Source of the DNA: Desulfobacterales bacterium
GTDB taxonomy: Bacteria > Desulfobacterota > Desulfobacteria > Desulfobacterales > UBA5852
Length of the DNA: 64,000 nt
Direction of reading: 5' to 3'
NCBI GenBank assembly: GCA_963674755.2
Contig: CAXXVS010000003.1
Location: forward strand, 1,344,001-1,408,000
Positions 54,441 to 64,000 of this stretch are shown here, piece by piece. Both the position numbers and the translations under genes were made by a program. Every line of letters begins with the position of its first letter. Positions within the stretch are counted from its first letter, which is position 1. Under the pieces are notes generated by a model that ran no database searches, was not told the origin of the DNA, and saw nothing but the letters and a program-made list of their open reading frames with translations.

Positions 54441-55646
54441 TCATTCCGGCACGATACCAGGCAGGGCCCGGCGCATCTGCCGCAGGGCCTGGCGAATGCG
54501 GTGCTCGTTTTCCACCAGGGCCAGGCGCAGGTAGCCTTCCCCCTCCTCGCCGAAGCCGATGCCCGGTGCGACCGCCACGTTGCCTTCTTCCATCAAGCGC
54601 AGAGCGAATTCCATGGAGCCCATGGCATCGTAAGGCGCCGGCAGTTTGGCCCACACGAACATGCCGGCCCGGGGGCGGGTGATCTCCCATCCCATTTTCT
54701 GCAACCCTTCACAGAGGATGTCCCGCCGCAGTTGGTACTTCTCTACCTGTTCCTCGATTTCAGCATCGCAGTGGCGCAGGGCCATGATCCCCGCCACCTG
54801 AATGGCGGAAAAAATGCCGTAATCATAGTACCCTTTGATCTTGGCCAGTCCTGCAATAATCTGTCGATTGCCGACGCAATACCCCAGACGCCAGCCGGCC
54901 ATGTTGTAGGTCTTGGAGAAGCTGCCGAACTCGACACCCACCTCCCGGGCTCCGGGAACTTCCAGGAAGCTGGGCGGCTGATAGCCGTCGAAGGCGATCT
55001 TGGCATAGGCGAAATCATGGATGACCATGAAGTCGTAGCGTTGGGCCAGGCGCACGATCTCCCGGAAGAGATCCCGGCTGCCGAGCATGGCGGTGGGGTT
55101 GTGGGGGTAGTTGAGGATCAGCAGTTTGGGCCGCGGGGAGACATTGCGGCACATGTCGGCGATGCGGCGCACGAAGACCTCGTCTTCATCCAGCATGATG
55201 CGGATCACGCTGCCCCCGGCAATGATGGCGGCGTAGATGTGCACCGGAAAGGCCGGGGCCGGGACCAGGACGGTGTCCCCCGGTCCCACCAGGGCCAGGC
55301 AGAGGTGGGAGATGCCCTCCTTGGAGCCGATGGTGCAGATGACTTCGGCATCGCTGTCCAATTCGACGCCGTAATCGGCCTGGTAGCGCAGGGCGATTTC
55401 CCGGCGCAGGCTGCGCAGGCCGTCGGCGGCCGGGTAGCGGTGGGTCTTGGGATCCCGGGCCACCTCGCTCAGTTTTTCGCTCACTGTGGTGGGGGCCGGA
55501 TCGATGGGGTTGCCCATGCCGAGATCGATGACGTCGTCCCCCCGCCGGCGTTTTTCCATTTTCGATTTGTTGATCATGCCGAAGAGGTAGGGCGGGAGCT
55601 GGCTCATGCGTTGGGCGAAACGGATGGTGGGCGGGTGATCGTTCAT
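54441..55646 (-). CDS. alaC: class I/II PLP aminotransferase, AlaC (glutamate-pyruvate aminotransferase)-like
   Basis: LPPYLF, MGNP, TIGSKEG, PVHIY, HDFAY, SKTYNMAGWRLG, YDYGIF, MGSMEFA and ALVENEHRIRQA closely follow E. coli AlaC as I recall it. Confidence 0.75.
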   Translation of the reverse strand: MNDHPPTIRFAQRMSQLPPYLFGMINKSKMEKRRRGDDVIDLGMGNPIDPAPTTVSEKLSEVARDPKTHRYPAADGLRSLRREIALRYQADYGVELDSDAEVICTIGSKEGISHLCLALVGPGDTVLVPAPAFPVHIYAAIIAGGSVIRIMLDEDEVFVRRIADMCRNVSPRPKLLILNYPHNPTAMLGSRDLFREIVRLAQRYDFMVIHDFAYAKIAFDGYQPPSFLEVPGAREVGVEFGSFSKTYNMAGWRLGYCVGNRQIIAGLAKIKGYYDYGIFSAIQVAGIMALRHCDAEIEEQVEKYQLRRDILCEGLQKMGWEITRPRAGMFVWAKLPAPYDAMGSMEFALRLMEEGNVAVAPGIGFGEEGEGYLRLALVENEHRIRQALRQMRRALPGIVPE

Positions 55647-55694
55647 GGCCATTTTCCTTTTTTGATAAGGGTGAGTGTTTCCCGATCGTCCAAT

Positions 55695-55731
55695 AAAAAA
55701 CCCCGGGCCGTTCATGCTCGGCCCGGGGTTT
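55695..55731 (-). terminator. attenuator terminator 2
   Basis: Minus strand AAACCCCGGGCCG-AGCATGAA-CGGCCCGGGGTTT followed by TTTATT. Confidence 0.85.
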
Positions 55732-55766
55732 AAAAAAAGCCATGGGCCGATTGGCCAGCCCATGGC
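55732..55766 (-). terminator. attenuator hairpin/terminator 1
   Basis: Minus strand GCCATGGGCTGG-CCAA-TCGGCCCATGGC followed by TTTTTTT. Confidence 0.8.
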
Positions 55767-55790
55767 GACGGTTACAGCATCTATGCTTGT

Positions 55791-55868
55791 TTAGCTGCTG
55801 TCGACCGCATCAAGGGCTGGCACCCCGGCTGCGGCCGCTGCAGCTGATGTCAACATCAGCGTTGTCAT
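55791..55868 (-). CDS. Ala-rich leader peptide MTTLMLTSAAAAAAGVPALDAVDSS (25 aa)
   Basis: RBS AAAAAGGAAA upstream of ATG; six consecutive Ala codons GCT GCA GCG GCC GCA GCC; TAA stop just before the terminator hairpins. Confidence 0.8.
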   Translation of the reverse strand: MTTLMLTSAAAAAAGVPALDAVDSS

Positions 55869-55901
55869 TGGATGGATTTCCTTTTTGAACGAAACGCCGT
55901 C

Positions 55902-55930
55902 ACCTTAAGGAAATTCGTCCATCCTGTCAA
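55902..55930 (-). promoter_or_regulatory. sigma70 promoter for the leader-alaC transcript
   Basis: Minus strand TTGACA-N17-TAAGGT. Confidence 0.7.
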
Positions 55931-56418
55931 ATGCAAACTTGTTGCCAGCCCTTCGGCAGGTCGCTTGCGGCCAGCCCTAACGTTTCAGCGAAGGCCTTCA
56001 GTTGGTAGGCCGTGCAATTGACGGCGCCGGGTGGTCGCCCGTGGGCCACGTCATCGGTTTCAACCGCCAGGAACCTCGCCAGGGCTTGGGCCGCCGCCTG
56101 ACGGTGGGGTGTGGTATCACGGCCTTCCCGTTCGCAGAAGCGGGTCAGGCGCTGCCAGTTCGCGATGGCTCGGGCCAACCCCCGATAGATGGAACGGTCG
56201 CGGAAGCGCGGGTTGAGATCCCGCAGGAGGATGCGCTGATAGCGCTGCTCCACGGCATCCTTCAGCGACGCGATGTCTTCCGGCGTCAGATCCAGACAGG
56301 GCCCGCCACGATCCTCCTGGAGATCGTAGAGCGCGGTATGCAGGGCGACTTCGGGCATTTCCCCCGAGTGGTGAATGGCGAAAACTTCCTCTTCGATCAA
56401 ACTGTGGTGATCCGTCAT
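55927..56418 (-). CDS. conserved-looking hypothetical protein
   Basis: 163 aa; RBS AGGAGG. Confidence 0.75.
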   Translation of the reverse strand: MTDHHSLIEEEVFAIHHSGEMPEVALHTALYDLQEDRGGPCLDLTPEDIASLKDAVEQRYQRILLRDLNPRFRDRSIYRGLARAIANWQRLTRFCEREGRDTTPHRQAAAQALARFLAVETDDVAHGRPPGAVNCTAYQLKAFAETLGLAASDLPKGWQQVCI

Positions 56419-58233: not shown

Positions 58234-58617
58234 TCAAGCCGCCTTTTTGTCTTCTCCCGATGCGGCCTTGCGGGGTTTGCGCCGGACTTCTCCCTGCAGA
58301 ATCAGCTCTTCGCGGACGATTGCCGGGCGTCGGTAGACCGTCTCCTGCCGGAGGCAGCTCTTGGGGCAGGCGGCCACACAGATGCCGCAGCCGATGCAGG
58401 CCATGGGGTCCAGAGTCCAGGTGGCAGCGGCCTTGTCCACCGAAATGCATTGGGACGGGCATTTACGGGCGCAGGCCCCGCAAAAGATGCAGTCTTCCAC
58501 CGCATTGGCCAGTTCGCCCCGGGCGCGTTCAAACGGCTCGCGCTGCTCGATGGGGTAGAGACGGGTGGCGCTTTTGCTGAACAAATTTTTCAGGATGTGG
58601 GGCGTCATGAACATCAT
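58234..58617 (-). CDS. echF: Ech hydrogenase 2x[4Fe-4S] subunit
   Basis: CIFCGACARKCP and CIGCGICVAACP; operon position. Confidence 0.9.
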   Translation of the reverse strand: MMFMTPHILKNLFSKSATRLYPIEQREPFERARGELANAVEDCIFCGACARKCPSQCISVDKAAATWTLDPMACIGCGICVAACPKSCLRQETVYRRPAIVREELILQGEVRRKPRKAASGEDKKAA

Positions 58618-58629
58618 GGTGGCGTTCTC

Positions 58630-59706
58630 CTATCGTTCGGTGCAGCTGATGCAGGGGTCAATGGACAGGACGATCACCGGCACGTCCGCCAGCTGGCAGC
58701 CGGGCAGCATGGCCAGCAGGGGGGCGATATTGGCGAAGGTGGGCGTGCGGATGCGCAGGCGCTCCAGGTGTTTGGACCCGTCGCACTTCATGTAGTAGAG
58801 CAGTTCCCCCCGGGGCTGCTCCACACGGCTGACCATCTCCCCTTCGGGGAAGCCCTTGACCTTGACGTTGATTTCGCCGGCCGGCAGCTTGTCGATGGCC
58901 TGGCGCACCAGGTCGATAGACTGCAGGGTTTCCCGGAAGCGCACTGCCCCTCGGGCGTAGGCATCCCCGTCGGTTTCCACCACCGGTTCGAAATCCAGCT
59001 CGTCGAAGGCAGCGTAGCGCAGCTGGCGCATGTCCTGGGCCCAGCCGCTGGCCCGCAGGGTGGGACCGGCCGCGCCCAATTCATAGGCTTGAGCCTTGTC
59101 GAGCACCCCCTTGCCCACCGTGCGCTTCTTGACGGTGTAGTCATTGAGCATGGTGGTCTGGATGGCCTTCAATTCTTTTTCCACGAGGTCCAGCTCCTTC
59201 AGGATCCACTGCTGTTGTTCGACGGGAATGTCGTAGCGCACGCCGCCGATGACGTTTACCGAAACGATCACCCGGTTGCCGCTGGTAGCCTCGTTGATGT
59301 CCATGATGCGTTCGCGGATTTTCCACAGCTGCATGAACAGGCTCTCGAAGCCGAAGGCATCGGCATAGAGTCCCAGCCAGAGGAGGTGGCTGTGCATGCG
59401 GTGCAGCTCGGACCAGACGACTCGCAGGAGACGGGCCCGGGGAGGCGCTGTCACGTCCATTTGTTTCTCGATGGCCTGGCAATAGCACATGGCGTGAATC
59501 ATGGAGCAGATGCCGCAGACCCGTTCCACCACCTGGATCATCTGGTGGATGTCGCGGATTTCGCAAAGTTTTTCCAGGCCGCGATGTACGAATCCGATCT
59601 GGGGGATGGCTTCGGTAACGATTTCGTCTTCCATCACCAGTTTCAAGTGCAGCGGTTCCGGTAGAACGGGATGCTGAGGGCCGAAAGGGATCGTCATTTT
59701 GGACAT
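58630..59706 (-). CDS. echE: Ech [NiFe]-hydrogenase large subunit
   Basis: PFGPQHP, ERVCGICS and terminal DPCISCTER with no C-terminal extension. Confidence 0.93.
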   Translation of the reverse strand: MSKMTIPFGPQHPVLPEPLHLKLVMEDEIVTEAIPQIGFVHRGLEKLCEIRDIHQMIQVVERVCGICSMIHAMCYCQAIEKQMDVTAPPRARLLRVVWSELHRMHSHLLWLGLYADAFGFESLFMQLWKIRERIMDINEATSGNRVIVSVNVIGGVRYDIPVEQQQWILKELDLVEKELKAIQTTMLNDYTVKKRTVGKGVLDKAQAYELGAAGPTLRASGWAQDMRQLRYAAFDELDFEPVVETDGDAYARGAVRFRETLQSIDLVRQAIDKLPAGEINVKVKGFPEGEMVSRVEQPRGELLYYMKCDGSKHLERLRIRTPTFANIAPLLAMLPGCQLADVPVIVLSIDPCISCTER

Positions 59707-59991
59707 GCGTCTACCTCGTCTGGGGGGTGAAGGCGGCCGGCGTGTCCTGGCGAAGACGACGCCGGCCGCGTTCGGGTATAACGGACGGCCGTGGGGCCGC
59801 TGTTGTGTGGAACATTTCGCATGGACGGGCTTGCGCCGCGGTGTTTTGGGAACAAAGGAGGCGGTCCCGCCGGCCGTCCGTTAATCGGTGTTGACTTCAT
59901 GCTGAATCGCTCGTTGTCGCCTTTGCAAAAGCGTTCACCACGAAGGGCACGAAGAGAGAAAAGAATCTTTGTACGGTTTCGTGGCATTTTT

Positions 59992-60384
59992 CTATCGGCC
60001 CTGCTTGGCCGATGAGGACCGGGTAGCTTTGACGACGCCATATTTGCAAAAGGGCGTCCGCCCGACCTCCTCTTCCAGGTAGAGGCCGGCCTCGTAGTCC
60101 AGGGCCAGGCCATCGAAGCGCAGGCCGAACTGATCCTGGATCTCGTTTTCCACCAGAACAGCAGCGAAATAGGCCCCGGAAATGCTGGGAACCGGGCGAT
60201 TCTTGCTGACATTCACCCGGAAGTGCTGCAAGGTGATCTCCCGGTCGAAGTGATAGATCAGGTCCACCTCGTGCGCGTTGAGATCCACTGCCGTCAGGGT
60301 CACCAGGCGGTAGCCGGCCTGTTTCATCCGTTTGGCGGCAGGGATGATTTCGTCGGTGGTGATGGAAGACATGTTGTCGATCAT
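59992..60384 (-). CDS. echD: Ech hydrogenase subunit D (NuoC-like)
   Basis: LIYHFD and VPSISGAYFAAVLVENEIQDQFG. Confidence 0.88.
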   Translation of the reverse strand: MIDNMSSITTDEIIPAAKRMKQAGYRLVTLTAVDLNAHEVDLIYHFDREITLQHFRVNVSKNRPVPSISGAYFAAVLVENEIQDQFGLRFDGLALDYEAGLYLEEEVGRTPFCKYGVVKATRSSSAKQGR

Positions 60385-60528
60385 GTTCGGTTTTTCCTTT
60401 TTAGGATTCTTCGCGCGTTGTTTCGGGGCGCCGTGGGATTCAGGGCATAAAGACCGGAATAGCGGAGTGCTTCATCCAAATTACTTGGGTGGAAAGGCTT
60501 TACAACCCACCTTCCTGTCTGTCTTTCA

Positions 60529-60566
60529 CCCGATCCCCTGGGGCCTTGAACCCTCGGCCCCCTGAA
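60529..60566. repeat. degenerate 8-bp tandem repeats
   Basis: CCCGATCC CCTGGGGC CTTGAACC CTCGGCCC CCTGAA; same family as 58193-58226. Confidence 0.5.
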
Positions 60567-60567
60567 G

Positions 60568-61011
60568 TCACGCCGCCTCCCGGGCCTTGCTCTTGAAGAC
60601 TTCGATGGCCTGCACCACGCCGTCGATGATGGCCTCCGGTTTGGGGGGGCAGCCGTAGACATAGACGTCCACCGGGATCACCTTGTCGATGCCCCCCACC
60701 ACATTGTAGGCCTCCCGGAAGATGCCGCCGGACAACCCGCAGGCCCCGATGGCGATGACGGCCTTGGGGTCCGGAATCTGGTCGTAGATCTTCTTCAGGA
60801 CATGCTTGTTGCGGTGGTTCACCGTGCCGGTCACCATGAGGATGTCGGCGTGCTTGGGGTTGCCCACGTTGACCACCCCGAAGCGCTCCACGTCGTAGAC
60901 GGGTGTCAGGCAGGCCAGCGTCTCGATGTCGCACCCGTTGCAGCTGCCGCAGTCGAAGTGCACGATCCAGGGTGACTTGGCGCGCGCTTTTTCGATAAAG
61001 TCTTTAATCAT
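60568..61011 (-). CDS. echC: Ech hydrogenase small subunit
   Basis: SPWIVHFDCGSCNGCDIE, GNPKHADI, IGAC and GCPPKPEAI. Confidence 0.92.
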   Translation of the reverse strand: MIKDFIEKARAKSPWIVHFDCGSCNGCDIETLACLTPVYDVERFGVVNVGNPKHADILMVTGTVNHRNKHVLKKIYDQIPDPKAVIAIGACGLSGGIFREAYNVVGGIDKVIPVDVYVYGCPPKPEAIIDGVVQAIEVFKSKAREAA

Positions 61012-61078
61012 GATATATCTTTTATCCTCCCGGACGCTAAAATTTCCGTATCGTATTGCCAATCTTGCGACGTTTTGT

Positions 61079-61293
61079 TTGTTCATTTTCTTCCACGTGG
61101 AAGAAAACGAACCAATCACGCCACGGCGTGACAGGCTTCAGACGCCCGTGTCCCGCTTCATCCTGCGCGTCGTCGCGTCGGCCGGAGCACGCGGAAACAC
61201 GCTCCGCCTTCGCTCTGGCTACGGCAGAGCTCAGACAGTCCGCGCGCTTTATTCCGTCCGCCCAGCCGATGCTCGGCGCGGGACAAATGGGAT
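61079..61293. repeat. structured intergenic repeat, copy 2 (inside the ech operon)
   Basis: Diverged copy of 57904-58075 with two extra inserted hairpins. Confidence 0.85.
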
Positions 61294-61495
61294 CAAATCA
61301 AAAATCGTGAACAGCATTTTTTAACCAGGACAAAACCATATCCAATCTTATAGGGTCGATGCAGAAAAGAGGATTTTTGATCCTGATCAAGGCCGCACAA
61401 GGGTTTTGCTGTGAGGCGTACATCGGTACGCCGCAGCAGGAAAACCCGCTGCGACCGGCCGAGCAGGCTCATAAAGACCTTTTCTGGTCGGCTCC

Positions 61496-62347
61496 TCATT
61501 TGGTGTAGAGCCATATGATATTGATGATTGACATGGCCAATCCCACGCTCCACACGTAGCCCAGCATCCAGCGCCAGGTCATGCGCGCCATGGCATTGTC
61601 CACGATCAACTCCGCAAAATAGGTTATGCCGACGAGCAGCAGCATGCCCGCCGCGCTGGTGGCCCAAAACAGGGCGCACAGTCCCAAAATCAAAACGGTT
61701 TCGTACCAGTGGCCGATTTCGATCAGGCCAAGAATGGGGCCGGAATGTTCGGTCAAAACGCCCTTGACGATTTCCTGGTGCCCGTGGTGCGAAGTCGAAA
61801 AGTCGAAGGGTGACTTGCGCAGCTTGATGGTGAGCGCATAGGTCAGGACCAAGAAGATCAGTGGCAGCTCCTTGAGCAACGGCGTAGCATGGCCGTAGAC
61901 GGCGGAGATCTTGAAGCTGCCGGTCACCGAGTAGATGGTGACGAACACCAGAATAAGAAGGGGTTCGTAGGTCAGCACCTGGATCAGCTCCCGCTGAGCG
62001 CCCACCTGGGCGTAGGGCGAGGGCACGGCCATGCCCCCCAGCACCAGGAAGACCGCACCCACGGCCTGCACGAAAAAGATCAGCAGGAGGTCCGATTGCA
62101 GAAAGAAGAGCACCACCGAGAGCACCGCCCCCACCAGGTAGACATAGGCGCAGAAGACCTGCCAGGCATTGGGCACGATCATCTGTTTGCCGAAGAGTTT
62201 GGCCACGTCGTAAAAGGGCTGCAGGATAGGCGGGCCGAAGCGGGCCTGCAGGCGGGCCGTGATGCGGCGGTCGATGCCGGCGATAAGCCCGCCCAACAGC
62301 GGCGCGCCCCCCAGGGCGAACAGAATCAGCAGGGTATCCTTGATCAC
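61496..62347 (-). CDS. echB: Ech hydrogenase membrane subunit B (NuoH-like)
   Basis: GIDRRITARLQARFGPPILQPFYD and KLRKSPFDFSTSHHGHQE; GTG start overlaps the echA TGA. Confidence 0.9.
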   Translation of the reverse strand: MIKDTLLILFALGGAPLLGGLIAGIDRRITARLQARFGPPILQPFYDVAKLFGKQMIVPNAWQVFCAYVYLVGAVLSVVLFFLQSDLLLIFFVQAVGAVFLVLGGMAVPSPYAQVGAQRELIQVLTYEPLLILVFVTIYSVTGSFKISAVYGHATPLLKELPLIFLVLTYALTIKLRKSPFDFSTSHHGHQEIVKGVLTEHSGPILGLIEIGHWYETVLILGLCALFWATSAAGMLLLVGITYFAELIVDNAMARMTWRWMLGYVWSVGLAMSIINIIWLYTK

Positions 62348-64000
62348 AGGGCACCTCCCATCATCAGTACCAGCAACGCCACGGCCACGTTGTTGACCCA
62401 GAAGGTCAGGCGCTCTTCCCCGAAGAGCCGGGTCAGATAGTAGTTGCCGGTTTCGATCCGGACGATCCGGTTCATGGGGCCGCGGAAGGTTTCGTCGTCC
62501 GGTCCGCCGCTGTGGAGCCCGGACATGTACATGGGGGCCACGTGACGGGCGCGGGTCTTCTGGGCCTGCTTCAGGGCGGCCACGAAGCCCAGGGCCAGGA
62601 TGATGAAGATGGGGATGACGGTAAACCCGCCGATGGGGCTGTCGAGGCTTCCGAAGCTCACCTGATACGGCGCAAAAGCCAGCATAGGGCGCACCAGCAG
62701 GCTGTAAATCCAGGGCAGGACCAGGCTGAAGAGGACCGCGCCGCCGGCCAGCACGTTCAAGGGCCCGATGGTGAAGGCGGACATGGGCTCCGGCGTGAGC
62801 CCCTTTTTGTAGGAGGCACTCATCAGGATACCCGCCCAGCGGCCCCAGACCACGAACCCCAGGGCACTGCCCATGGCGATCATCCCCACCGCGGGCAGGT
62901 TGTTGGAGGCGGCCTCGATAGCCATCCATTTGCTGATCAGCACGCCGAAGGGCGGCAGCAGCATGGTCATGATGCCGATCACGGTGATGACCGCGATGCG
63001 GGGCTTGATGGCGAACAGCCCCCGCATATCCTCGATGTCGCGGCTGCCGATCTCCTGTTCGATGGTGCCGACGCACAGAAACAGCAGGGCCTTGGAGACG
63101 GCGTGGAAGATGATCAGCAGGATGCCGGCCGTGAGCGCGGTGGGCGTGTTGATGCCGGCGCAGGCGATGATCAGGCCCAGGTTGGAAATGGTGGAATAGG
63201 CCAGGATCTTCTTGGCGTTGCGCTGGCCCAGGGCCAGGGCGATGGTTACCAGGAAGGTGAAGGCCCCCACGATGGCCAGCCCCTGGCTGAAAAAGGTACC
63301 GGCAAAGACAGGTGCAAAGCGGAAGATGACGTAGACGCCGGCCTTGACCATGGTACTCGAGTGCAGCAGGGCGCTGACCGGGGTGGGCGCCACCATGGCG
63401 CCCAACAGCCAGCTCTGGAAGGGCACCTGGGCCGACTTGGTGAACCCGGCCAGGCAGAACAGGGCCATGGGCACCAGCAGGGCGGCGGCCGGGCCGGCGG
63501 CCACGATCTGCTGGATGTCGGTGGTGCCGGTGATCTGGTGGACGCCGATCATGCCGGCGACAAAGGCCACGCCGCCCAGGGCGTTCATCCACAGGGCCCG
63601 CAGCGCGTTTTGGACGGCCAATTCGGTGCCGTCATGGCCGATCAGCAGGAAGGAGCACAGGGTGGTGACCTCGAAAAAGAAGTAGAGCCAGACGATGTCA
63701 TTGGAAAGTGCCAGCCCGTTCATGGCGCCCAGGAAAGCCAGCAGCAGGAAGAAAAAGCGTGGCTGTCGGGAGTGAGCCGGCTTCTGGTGATCTTCGTGGC
63801 GCTGCATGTAGGGCAGGGCGAACACACAGATCAGCGATCCCACGATGGAGACTATCAGGGTGATGATAAGCGAAAGGTTGTCGCCGTAGAAGCCGGCCGC
63901 CGGAGCTTTGTGATCGATCAGAAAGAGTTCGAAGAACATCAGGGGCAGGGCCTGCAGGGCCACCAGGACCATGATGAGTTTATGGCGGTGCCGGCGAGCG
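62344..64000 (-). CDS. echA: Ech hydrogenase antiporter-like subunit A (5' end outside the window)
   Basis: KSAQVPFQSWLLGAMVAPTPVSALLHSSTMVKAG and KKILAYSTISNLG; the frame is open to the window edge. Confidence 0.92.
   Translation of the reverse strand, partial: ARRHRHKLIMVLVALQALPLMFFELFLIDHKAPAAGFYGDNLSLIITLIVSIVGSLICVFALPYMQRHEDHQKPAHSRQPRFFFLLLAFLGAMNGLALSNDIVWLYFFFEVTTLCSFLLIGHDGTELAVQNALRALWMNALGGVAFVAGMIGVHQITGTTDIQQIVAAGPAAALLVPMALFCLAGFTKSAQVPFQSWLLGAMVAPTPVSALLHSSTMVKAGVYVIFRFAPVFAGTFFSQGLAIVGAFTFLVTIALALGQRNAKKILAYSTISNLGLIIACAGINTPTALTAGILLIIFHAVSKALLFLCVGTIEQEIGSRDIEDMRGLFAIKPRIAVITVIGIMTMLLPPFGVLISKWMAIEAASNNLPAVGMIAMGSALGFVVWGRWAGILMSASYKKGLTPEPMSAFTIGPLNVLAGGAVLFSLVLPWIYSLLVRPMLAFAPYQVSFGSLDSPIGGFTVIPIFIILALGFVAALKQAQKTRARHVAPMYMSGLHSGGPDDETFRGPMNRIVRIETGNYYLTRLFGEERLTFWVNNVAVALLVLMMGGAL

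Follow-up and report, generated by a model that had tools for sequence, protein, structure and literature searches.

The window, a 64,000-nt stretch of a Desulfobacterales bacterium genome (GenBank assembly GCA_963674755.2, contig CAXXVS010000003.1, positions 1,344,001 to 1,408,000), carries on its minus strand a gene for an AlaC-like aminotransferase, preceded by a short ORF with six tandem alanine codons and by two hairpins with U-tracts. The initial annotation had listed a promoter, a ribosome-binding site, a 25-codon ORF, its Ala run, two hairpins, and a set of pairings between them, and each of these was found at its given position in the sequence and in the hairpin listing. The features, in window coordinates, are as follows.

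55902..55930, minus strand: candidate sigma-70 promoter TTGACA-N17-TAAGGT (TTGACA, 55930-55925; TAAGGT, 55907-55902; spacer, 17 nt), putative, from the sequence
55879..55883, minus strand: Shine-Dalgarno-like AAGGA, 10 nt before the leader ATG, from the sequence
55791..55868, minus strand: leader ORF of 25 codons, MTTLMLTSAAAAAAGVPALDAVDSS, from translation, with a conserved in-frame ATG
55827..55844, minus strand: six tandem Ala control codons (codons 9-14), holding RNA segment 1 (55837-55830)
55802..55821, minus strand: segment 2, consisting of GCCAGCCC (55821-55814), which pairs with segment 3, and TGCGGTCG (55809-55802), which pairs with the Ala codons, from the MFE fold
55739..55766, minus strand: hairpin 3:4 (segments 3 and 4), 12 pairs, followed by U7 (55738-55732), from the hairpin listing; putative anti-antiterminator, perhaps also the first terminator
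55718..55750, minus strand: putative antiterminator 4:5, TCGGCCC (55750-55744) with GGGCCGA (55724-55718), from covariation and masked folding
55692..55731, minus strand: hairpin 5:6 (13 pairs, 55731-55698) and U-tract, candidate intrinsic terminator
54441..55646, minus strand: class I/II PLP aminotransferase of 401 aa, AlaC-like subfamily, from family and structure matches

The Ala codons (55844-55827) read GCT GCA GCG GCC GCA GCC. Among 11 short ATG-started ORFs with at least five tandem Ala codons in the 6.7-Mb genome, only this leader is followed within 220 nt by a T5 tract. The upstream gene, DUF7826 (55927-56418, minus strand), ends inside the candidate -35 hexamer, its stop codon being the TGA within TTGACA (55930-55925). 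A consensus promoter scan listed 0 promoters and missed the TTGACA-N17-TAAGGT site. TTGAC is present at most 110 nt upstream of the upstream ORF (uORF) in 36 of 40 leaders, and a TA...T hexamer follows it after 16-18 nt in 23 of the 40. The closest relative (95%; L001:1100-1275) keeps the leader, but its upstream sequence is unrelated and has no TTGACA, which suggests a promoter rearrangement there. Elsewhere in the window, at 58234-63972 (minus strand), lies an Ech-type membrane-bound hydrogenase-like gene cluster, named from ORF reading.

Conservation of the poly-alanine leader

An order-wide search of 301 genomes yielded 49 orthologues of the aminotransferase at 64-100% identity, versus a paralogue group near 50%. 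Left out were L054 (a duplicate with no upstream DNA), L077 (wrong side), L011-L014 (the same loci as L002-L005), and the outgroups L007 and L010. In this order-wide sample a short upstream ORF with at least four tandem Ala codons precedes 30 of the 49 orthologues, and in two more the run, in the same RNA frame, is degenerate (ATAT in L026 and AASA in L046). The Ala leader is absent from the other 17, among which L020 keeps the hairpins and L058 is poorly judgeable. Among 401 genomes, six orthologues belong to other orders of the phylum, and every one of them carries the Ala leader; a run of at least four Ala in a short ORF was found in 0 of 37 paralogue upstream regions used as controls. The poly-Ala uORFs that the initial annotation expected upstream of orthologous genes are thus conserved in the order and outside it, and are lacking from the paralogue controls. 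A FastTree tree of 97 proteins groups 10 of the leaderless orthologues in a single clade and places six of the remaining seven among or beside leader-bearing ones. Since the branch separating leader-bearing from leaderless proteins is weakly supported (0.36), the tree does not decide between gain and loss of the leader.

Metagenomes were searched with a pattern made of the hairpins alone, with no Ala information. This search returned 53 loci, 40 of them upstream of an AlaC-like aminotransferase, and 37 of these 40 have at least four tandem Ala codons; because some of the leaders share species with the genome set and the hairpin pattern was derived from that set, the search is independent only in its choice of matches. 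The other 13 loci comprise one Ala leader without downstream DNA, three loci before an EamA transporter, and nine chance-like matches. The three EamA-family loci (L144, L167, and L175) show the hairpin pattern of 3:4 and 5 together with a sequence resembling segment 2, and have no Ala run. At a further locus (L128; G095:C188:167452-167614, plus strand), an intact Ala leader precedes a 144-aa aminotransferase ORF in which the start is fused to the end, through either an internal deletion or an assembly collapse.

The Ala run is kept as codons. In an alignment of 40 leaders, whose rows were picked for leader presence, the four core codons (columns 34-45) encode Ala in 155 of 160 cases, with entropies of 0.23, 0.15, and 1.59 bits at codon positions 1, 2, and 3, respectively. 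The N-terminal codons of the leader peptide (columns 4-30) are free. Because the first two positions are fixed while the third and the N-terminal codons are free, selection, as read from the aligned sequences, is on alanine and not on peptide sequence or RNA alone. With helix 2:3 as the sole anchor, 29 of 35 distinct metagenome leaders have AAAA at the four expected codons, the others being three near misses and three mis-anchored rows counted as misses. Of these 35 hairpin-selected leaders, 34 have an open ATG in frame with the Ala codons, versus 1 and 2 in the other frames. A short leader ORF with a conserved in-frame start and tandem control codons kept as such are both found in classical attenuators.

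These data also bear on a reading in which the leader works as RNA alone, as a riboswitch or by binding a protein, and GC-rich pairing has produced the GCN run incidentally. Pairing of the run with segment 2 and the strong structure of the leader fit this; however, the free third positions beside fixed first and second ones, and the ATG held open in the Ala frame, are at odds with such an origin, and there is no conserved unpaired core. An Rfam scan likewise returned no family at the gathering threshold, its 11 weak matches (best, 28.7 bits versus 70) including no leader, T-box, or riboswitch. We regard an RNA-only switch as extremely unlikely.

Alternative helices and ribosome position

The fold of the 179-nt leader has a free energy of -95.1 kcal/mol (z, -7.58), which 0 of 200 shuffles equalled. 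In this fold the Ala codons at 55837-55830 pair with 55809-55802 in the 3' half of the ORF. This helix, 1:2, had been overlooked in the initial annotation, whose other pairings are present, and with it the leader divides into six segments, as the his leader can be described. The segments form two mutually exclusive states, 1:2 with 3:4 and 5:6 (termination) and 2:3 with 4:5 (read-through). The helices were named by hand and then counted over the alignment, because RNAalifold, unaided, returned only parts of 3:4 and 5:6 and predicted neither helix 1:2 nor the read-through state.

In the termination state 81.9% of the alignment cells are paired, with changes on both sides in 15 of 34 pairs; in the read-through state the values are 88.1% and 12 of 17. 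Each state beat 500 of 500 shuffles on both percent paired and covariation score, counts that overstate significance because the alignment rows are related, and slid controls gave 21-48% paired. Helix 1:2 is the weakest (66.6% of cells paired), whereas 2:3 is 88.6% paired with both-side changes in 7 of 10 pairs, 4:5 is 87.5% paired with both-side changes in 5 of 7, and 5:6 is 90.7% paired with both-side changes in 8 of 11. For hairpin 3:4 the values are 89.6% and 86.7% paired. Terminator and antiterminator helices that exclude each other, both covarying, are a further property of classical attenuators, and the covarying stems sought in the initial annotation are found in both RNA states. Hairpin 3:4 is followed by a U-tract in 31 of 40 leaders and hairpin 5:6 in 36; 27 leaders have one after each of them, and all 40 after at least one of the two. 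The hairpin that terminates may differ between species. As a sequence feature, then, each leader has a U-tailed candidate intrinsic terminator before the gene.

The effect of ribosome position was modelled by folding 40 leaders under a ribosome mask, on transcripts ending at segment 5. With the ribosome stalled on the Ala run, 2:3 formed in 30 of 40 leaders and 4:5 in 25, and with the ribosome at the stop codon 3:4 formed in 32 of 40 and 4:5 in 3. When the A site was moved codon by codon along the window leader with an 11-nt footprint, 2:3 reached 0.70-1.0 at codons 6-13 and 0 from codon 14; with a 14-nt footprint it was lost one codon earlier. Helix 4:5 was strong with the A site at codon 8 and at codons 11-13 and weak at codons 9-10 (0.06-0.12). 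In these models the antiterminator is favored only with the ribosome at or just before the Ala run. The masked folding suggested by the initial annotation, on such truncated transcripts, gives the outcome it predicted, in which a stall at the control codons favors the antiterminator as in classical attenuators.

On full-length transcripts the terminator wins despite a stalled ribosome in 33 of 40 leaders, including the window leader. The E. coli his leader, folded as a control, behaves in the same way under the mask, and its terminator also wins at full length. Because this control behaves alike, equilibrium folding of the full leader, which shows no switching, was taken as uninformative. The direct refolding barrier to the full-length fold has a median of 11.6 kcal/mol from the stalled state (21 rows in which both states were resolved), versus 4.3 kcal/mol from the stop state (40 rows). 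Since the full-length equilibrium fold is the terminator even when the ribosome is stalled, the switch is predicted to be kinetic.

The observed ORF, its conservation and codon pattern, the covarying helices, and the link to one gene, together with the modelled dependence of the fold on ribosome position, make it very probable that this is a transcription attenuator that is read by the ribosome, measures charged alanyl-tRNA, and controls the AlaC-like aminotransferase gene. This is the leader-peptide attenuator of the initial annotation, which gains support from conservation, variation by codon type, covariation of both states, and masked folding. When alanine is plentiful, a ribosome translating the leader would clear it and cover segment 2, hairpins 3:4 and 5:6 would form, and one or both of these U-tailed hairpins would stop RNA polymerase. 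A shortage of Ala-tRNA would instead hold the ribosome at the Ala codons, over segment 1, and leave segment 2 free; formation of 2:3 would then break up the first hairpin and 4:5 would keep the second from forming, so that RNA polymerase would read on into the aminotransferase gene.

Related leaders and the aminotransferase

A covariance model was used to look for the Ala leader upstream of other genes. It gave 8 matches in the genome studied here (order, 52 of 151 genomes; phylum, 8 of 151), and none of the 14 order and 7 phylum weak matches that were read is an Ala leader preceding a different gene. The strong matches all lie before an AlaC-like aminotransferase. Among the weak matches are Phe, Tyr, Trp, and Ile/Leu/Val leaders of Desulfobacterota, which share the layout of the Ala leader, an ORF followed by two U-tailed hairpins, but differ from it in their control codons and downstream enzymes; these leaders are likewise predictions. 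In the genome studied here, three DAHP synthase genes, L220 (G000:C2:571425, plus strand), L108 (C2:661272, plus strand), and L223 (C3:567591, minus strand), are preceded by leader ORFs rich in different aromatic residues (Trp, Phe, Tyr) and then by two U-tailed hairpins. A Phe-rich leader ORF with two U-tailed hairpins (L221; G000:C2:886087, plus strand) precedes a gene for the phenylacetate-CoA ligase PaaK (648.6 bits; cut-off, 646.3), an arrangement that would fit phenylalanine being made from phenylacetate. An Ile/Leu/Val-rich leader ORF with one terminator-like hairpin (L222; G000:C2:2027975, plus strand) precedes ilvD. Other Desulfobacterota (L130, L138, L139, L141, L131, and L203-L209) have Tyr-rich leaders before a gene for a DeoC/LacD-family aldolase and before an aroE-like gene, leaders rich in Trp upstream of trpE-like and PALP-family genes, and an Ile/Leu/Val leader upstream of a gene for a TPP enzyme.

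The enzyme itself was called AlaC-like in the initial annotation, and AlaC is indeed its best family match. The best NCBIfam model is the alanine transaminase PRK08175, at 504.8 bits and below the cut-off of 647; the match does not reach the 647 bits of the AlaC equivalog NF006033. The closer AlaC match of this genome is a paralogue upstream of a homoserine dehydrogenase gene (hom, named from ORF reading), with 59% identity to E. coli AlaC and 637.3 bits, and this paralogue has no leader. The LL-diaminopimelate (LL-DAP) aminotransferase models come next, at 475, 455, 452, and 442 bits, about 30-60 bits below PRK08175. Identity as an LL-DAP aminotransferase, which the initial annotation had named as contrary to its reading, was rejected, the scores lying below the cut-offs of TIGR03542 (144.9 versus 364.7), TIGR03540 (441.9 versus 593.25), and PRK09276 (455.4 versus 507). 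A separate true DapL is encoded in the genome (585.5 bits; cut-off, 364.7), so the need for lysine is met elsewhere.

The best structure match is PDB 2x5d, which is called PaAlaC in PMC4094517. The enzyme shares 49% identity with E. coli AlaC, including 109 invariant columns and the motifs LPPY, GSKEG, and the catalytic Lys motif, and forms its own clade on a long branch from the AlaC group. By manual count, 20 conserved columns differ from AlaC and the paralogues, among them P72, F133, and G272, where AlaC and the paralogues carry S, Y, and S. Two alanine dehydrogenases are encoded elsewhere in the genome; given these and the closer AlaC match, alanine supply does not obviously depend on the AlaC-like enzyme. 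Many JGI records label the orthologues alanine-synthesizing transaminase, by automatic annotation.

The attenuator might sense Ala-tRNA while the main substrate of the enzyme is another, with alanine serving as a proxy for pyruvate or nitrogen status. The score below the AlaC cut-off with LL-DAP aminotransferase models close behind, the long branch with its three substitutions, and the other alanine routes all leave room for this; the best family and structure matches, the 109 columns in common with E. coli AlaC, the DapL elsewhere, and the agreement of the other leaders of the genome with the product of their pathway speak against it, and we consider it unlikely. The enzyme is instead predicted to make alanine, a substrate assignment that is drawn in part from the leader, the enzyme being a separate AlaC-like paralogue below the family cut-off. 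It gains weight because the Trp-, Phe-, Tyr-, and Ile/Leu/Val-rich leaders of the same genome match their pathways.

Comparison with known attenuators

The Ala leader resembles the enterobacterial his leader (hisL; RF00514) and other classical attenuators in its short ORF, tandem codons, and alternative helices ending in an intrinsic terminator. It differs from them in having Ala control codons, no Rfam leader match, a single transaminase gene, and a place in Desulfobacterota, and in that both termination-state hairpins are U-tailed in 27 of 40 leaders. Attenuators in delta-proteobacteria were reportedly predicted by Lopatovskaya et al. in 2010, and Hauser and Hatfield are said to have reported in 1984 that Ala codons play a part in the ilvB leader of E. 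coli. E. coli alaC has no poly-Ala ORF in the 376 nt upstream of it; E. coli AlaC and P. aeruginosa PA4715 (PDB 2x5d) are the best family and structure matches, yet the enzyme falls below the equivalog cut-off and in a separate clade. No account of a dedicated tandem-Ala leader placed immediately upstream of a transaminase gene came up in a literature search, which did not cover the supplement of PMC11109978; that supplement may bear on novelty. PMC11109978 gives eight uORF candidates and an unrelated-looking aspC motif, and the word "alanine" is absent from the main text of PMC2965389 and PMC4833913.

The initial annotation had held that no Ala-codon leader attenuator was characterized. This does not stand, since the alanine-responsive whiB7 uORF of mycobacteria is one (PMC10274678). 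According to two sources (PMC10274678; bioRxiv 10.1101/2025.10.10.681568), this uORF is enriched in Ala (83 aa in M. smegmatis, 24% Ala) and attenuates transcription. It responds to antibiotics as well as to many amino acids and exerts feedback on AspC, an alanine aminotransferase; the authors leave open the reason for sensing alanine. The likeness to the present leader lies in the Ala-enriched uORF and, for whiB7 as described there, in a stall that leads to antitermination and more alanine aminotransferase (AspC). The whiB7 uORF is long and acts through a transcription factor, whereas the ORF here has 16-26 codons and a tandem run and lies directly before the enzyme.

The present leader could by this likeness be a general sensor of translation stress or nascent-peptide arrest, not specific to alanine. 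The breadth of the response described for whiB7 (PMC10274678), the modelled stalls at codons 6-8 that also favor 2:3, and the degenerate runs in two leaders would be compatible with such a role. An arrest peptide that acts through its sequence would be expected to keep residues outside the Ala run, but these are free here (columns 4-30); the leader ORF is also short, and no residue other than Ala is maintained in the switching window. A general sensor thus seems highly improbable.

We consider it likely that the leader is a dedicated poly-alanine attenuator directly before an uncharacterized AlaC-like transaminase subfamily across Desulfobacterota, extending the classical attenuators to alanine. 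It would be one of a set of two-terminator leaders in the phylum with pathway-dependent control codons, so that the leader names the product of an unannotated enzyme. Classical attenuators cover a short list of amino acids, and the sole tested alanine case found is the broad, indirect whiB7 uORF. A compact alanine-only leader would allow a clean test of whether Ala-tRNA charging is usable as a signal, and could serve directly as an alanine sensor in reporter constructs. The leader also predicts a function for a subfamily of aminotransferases left unplaced by family models, and, as predicted from the leaders, several pathways of Desulfobacterota may be under ribosome-read attenuation.
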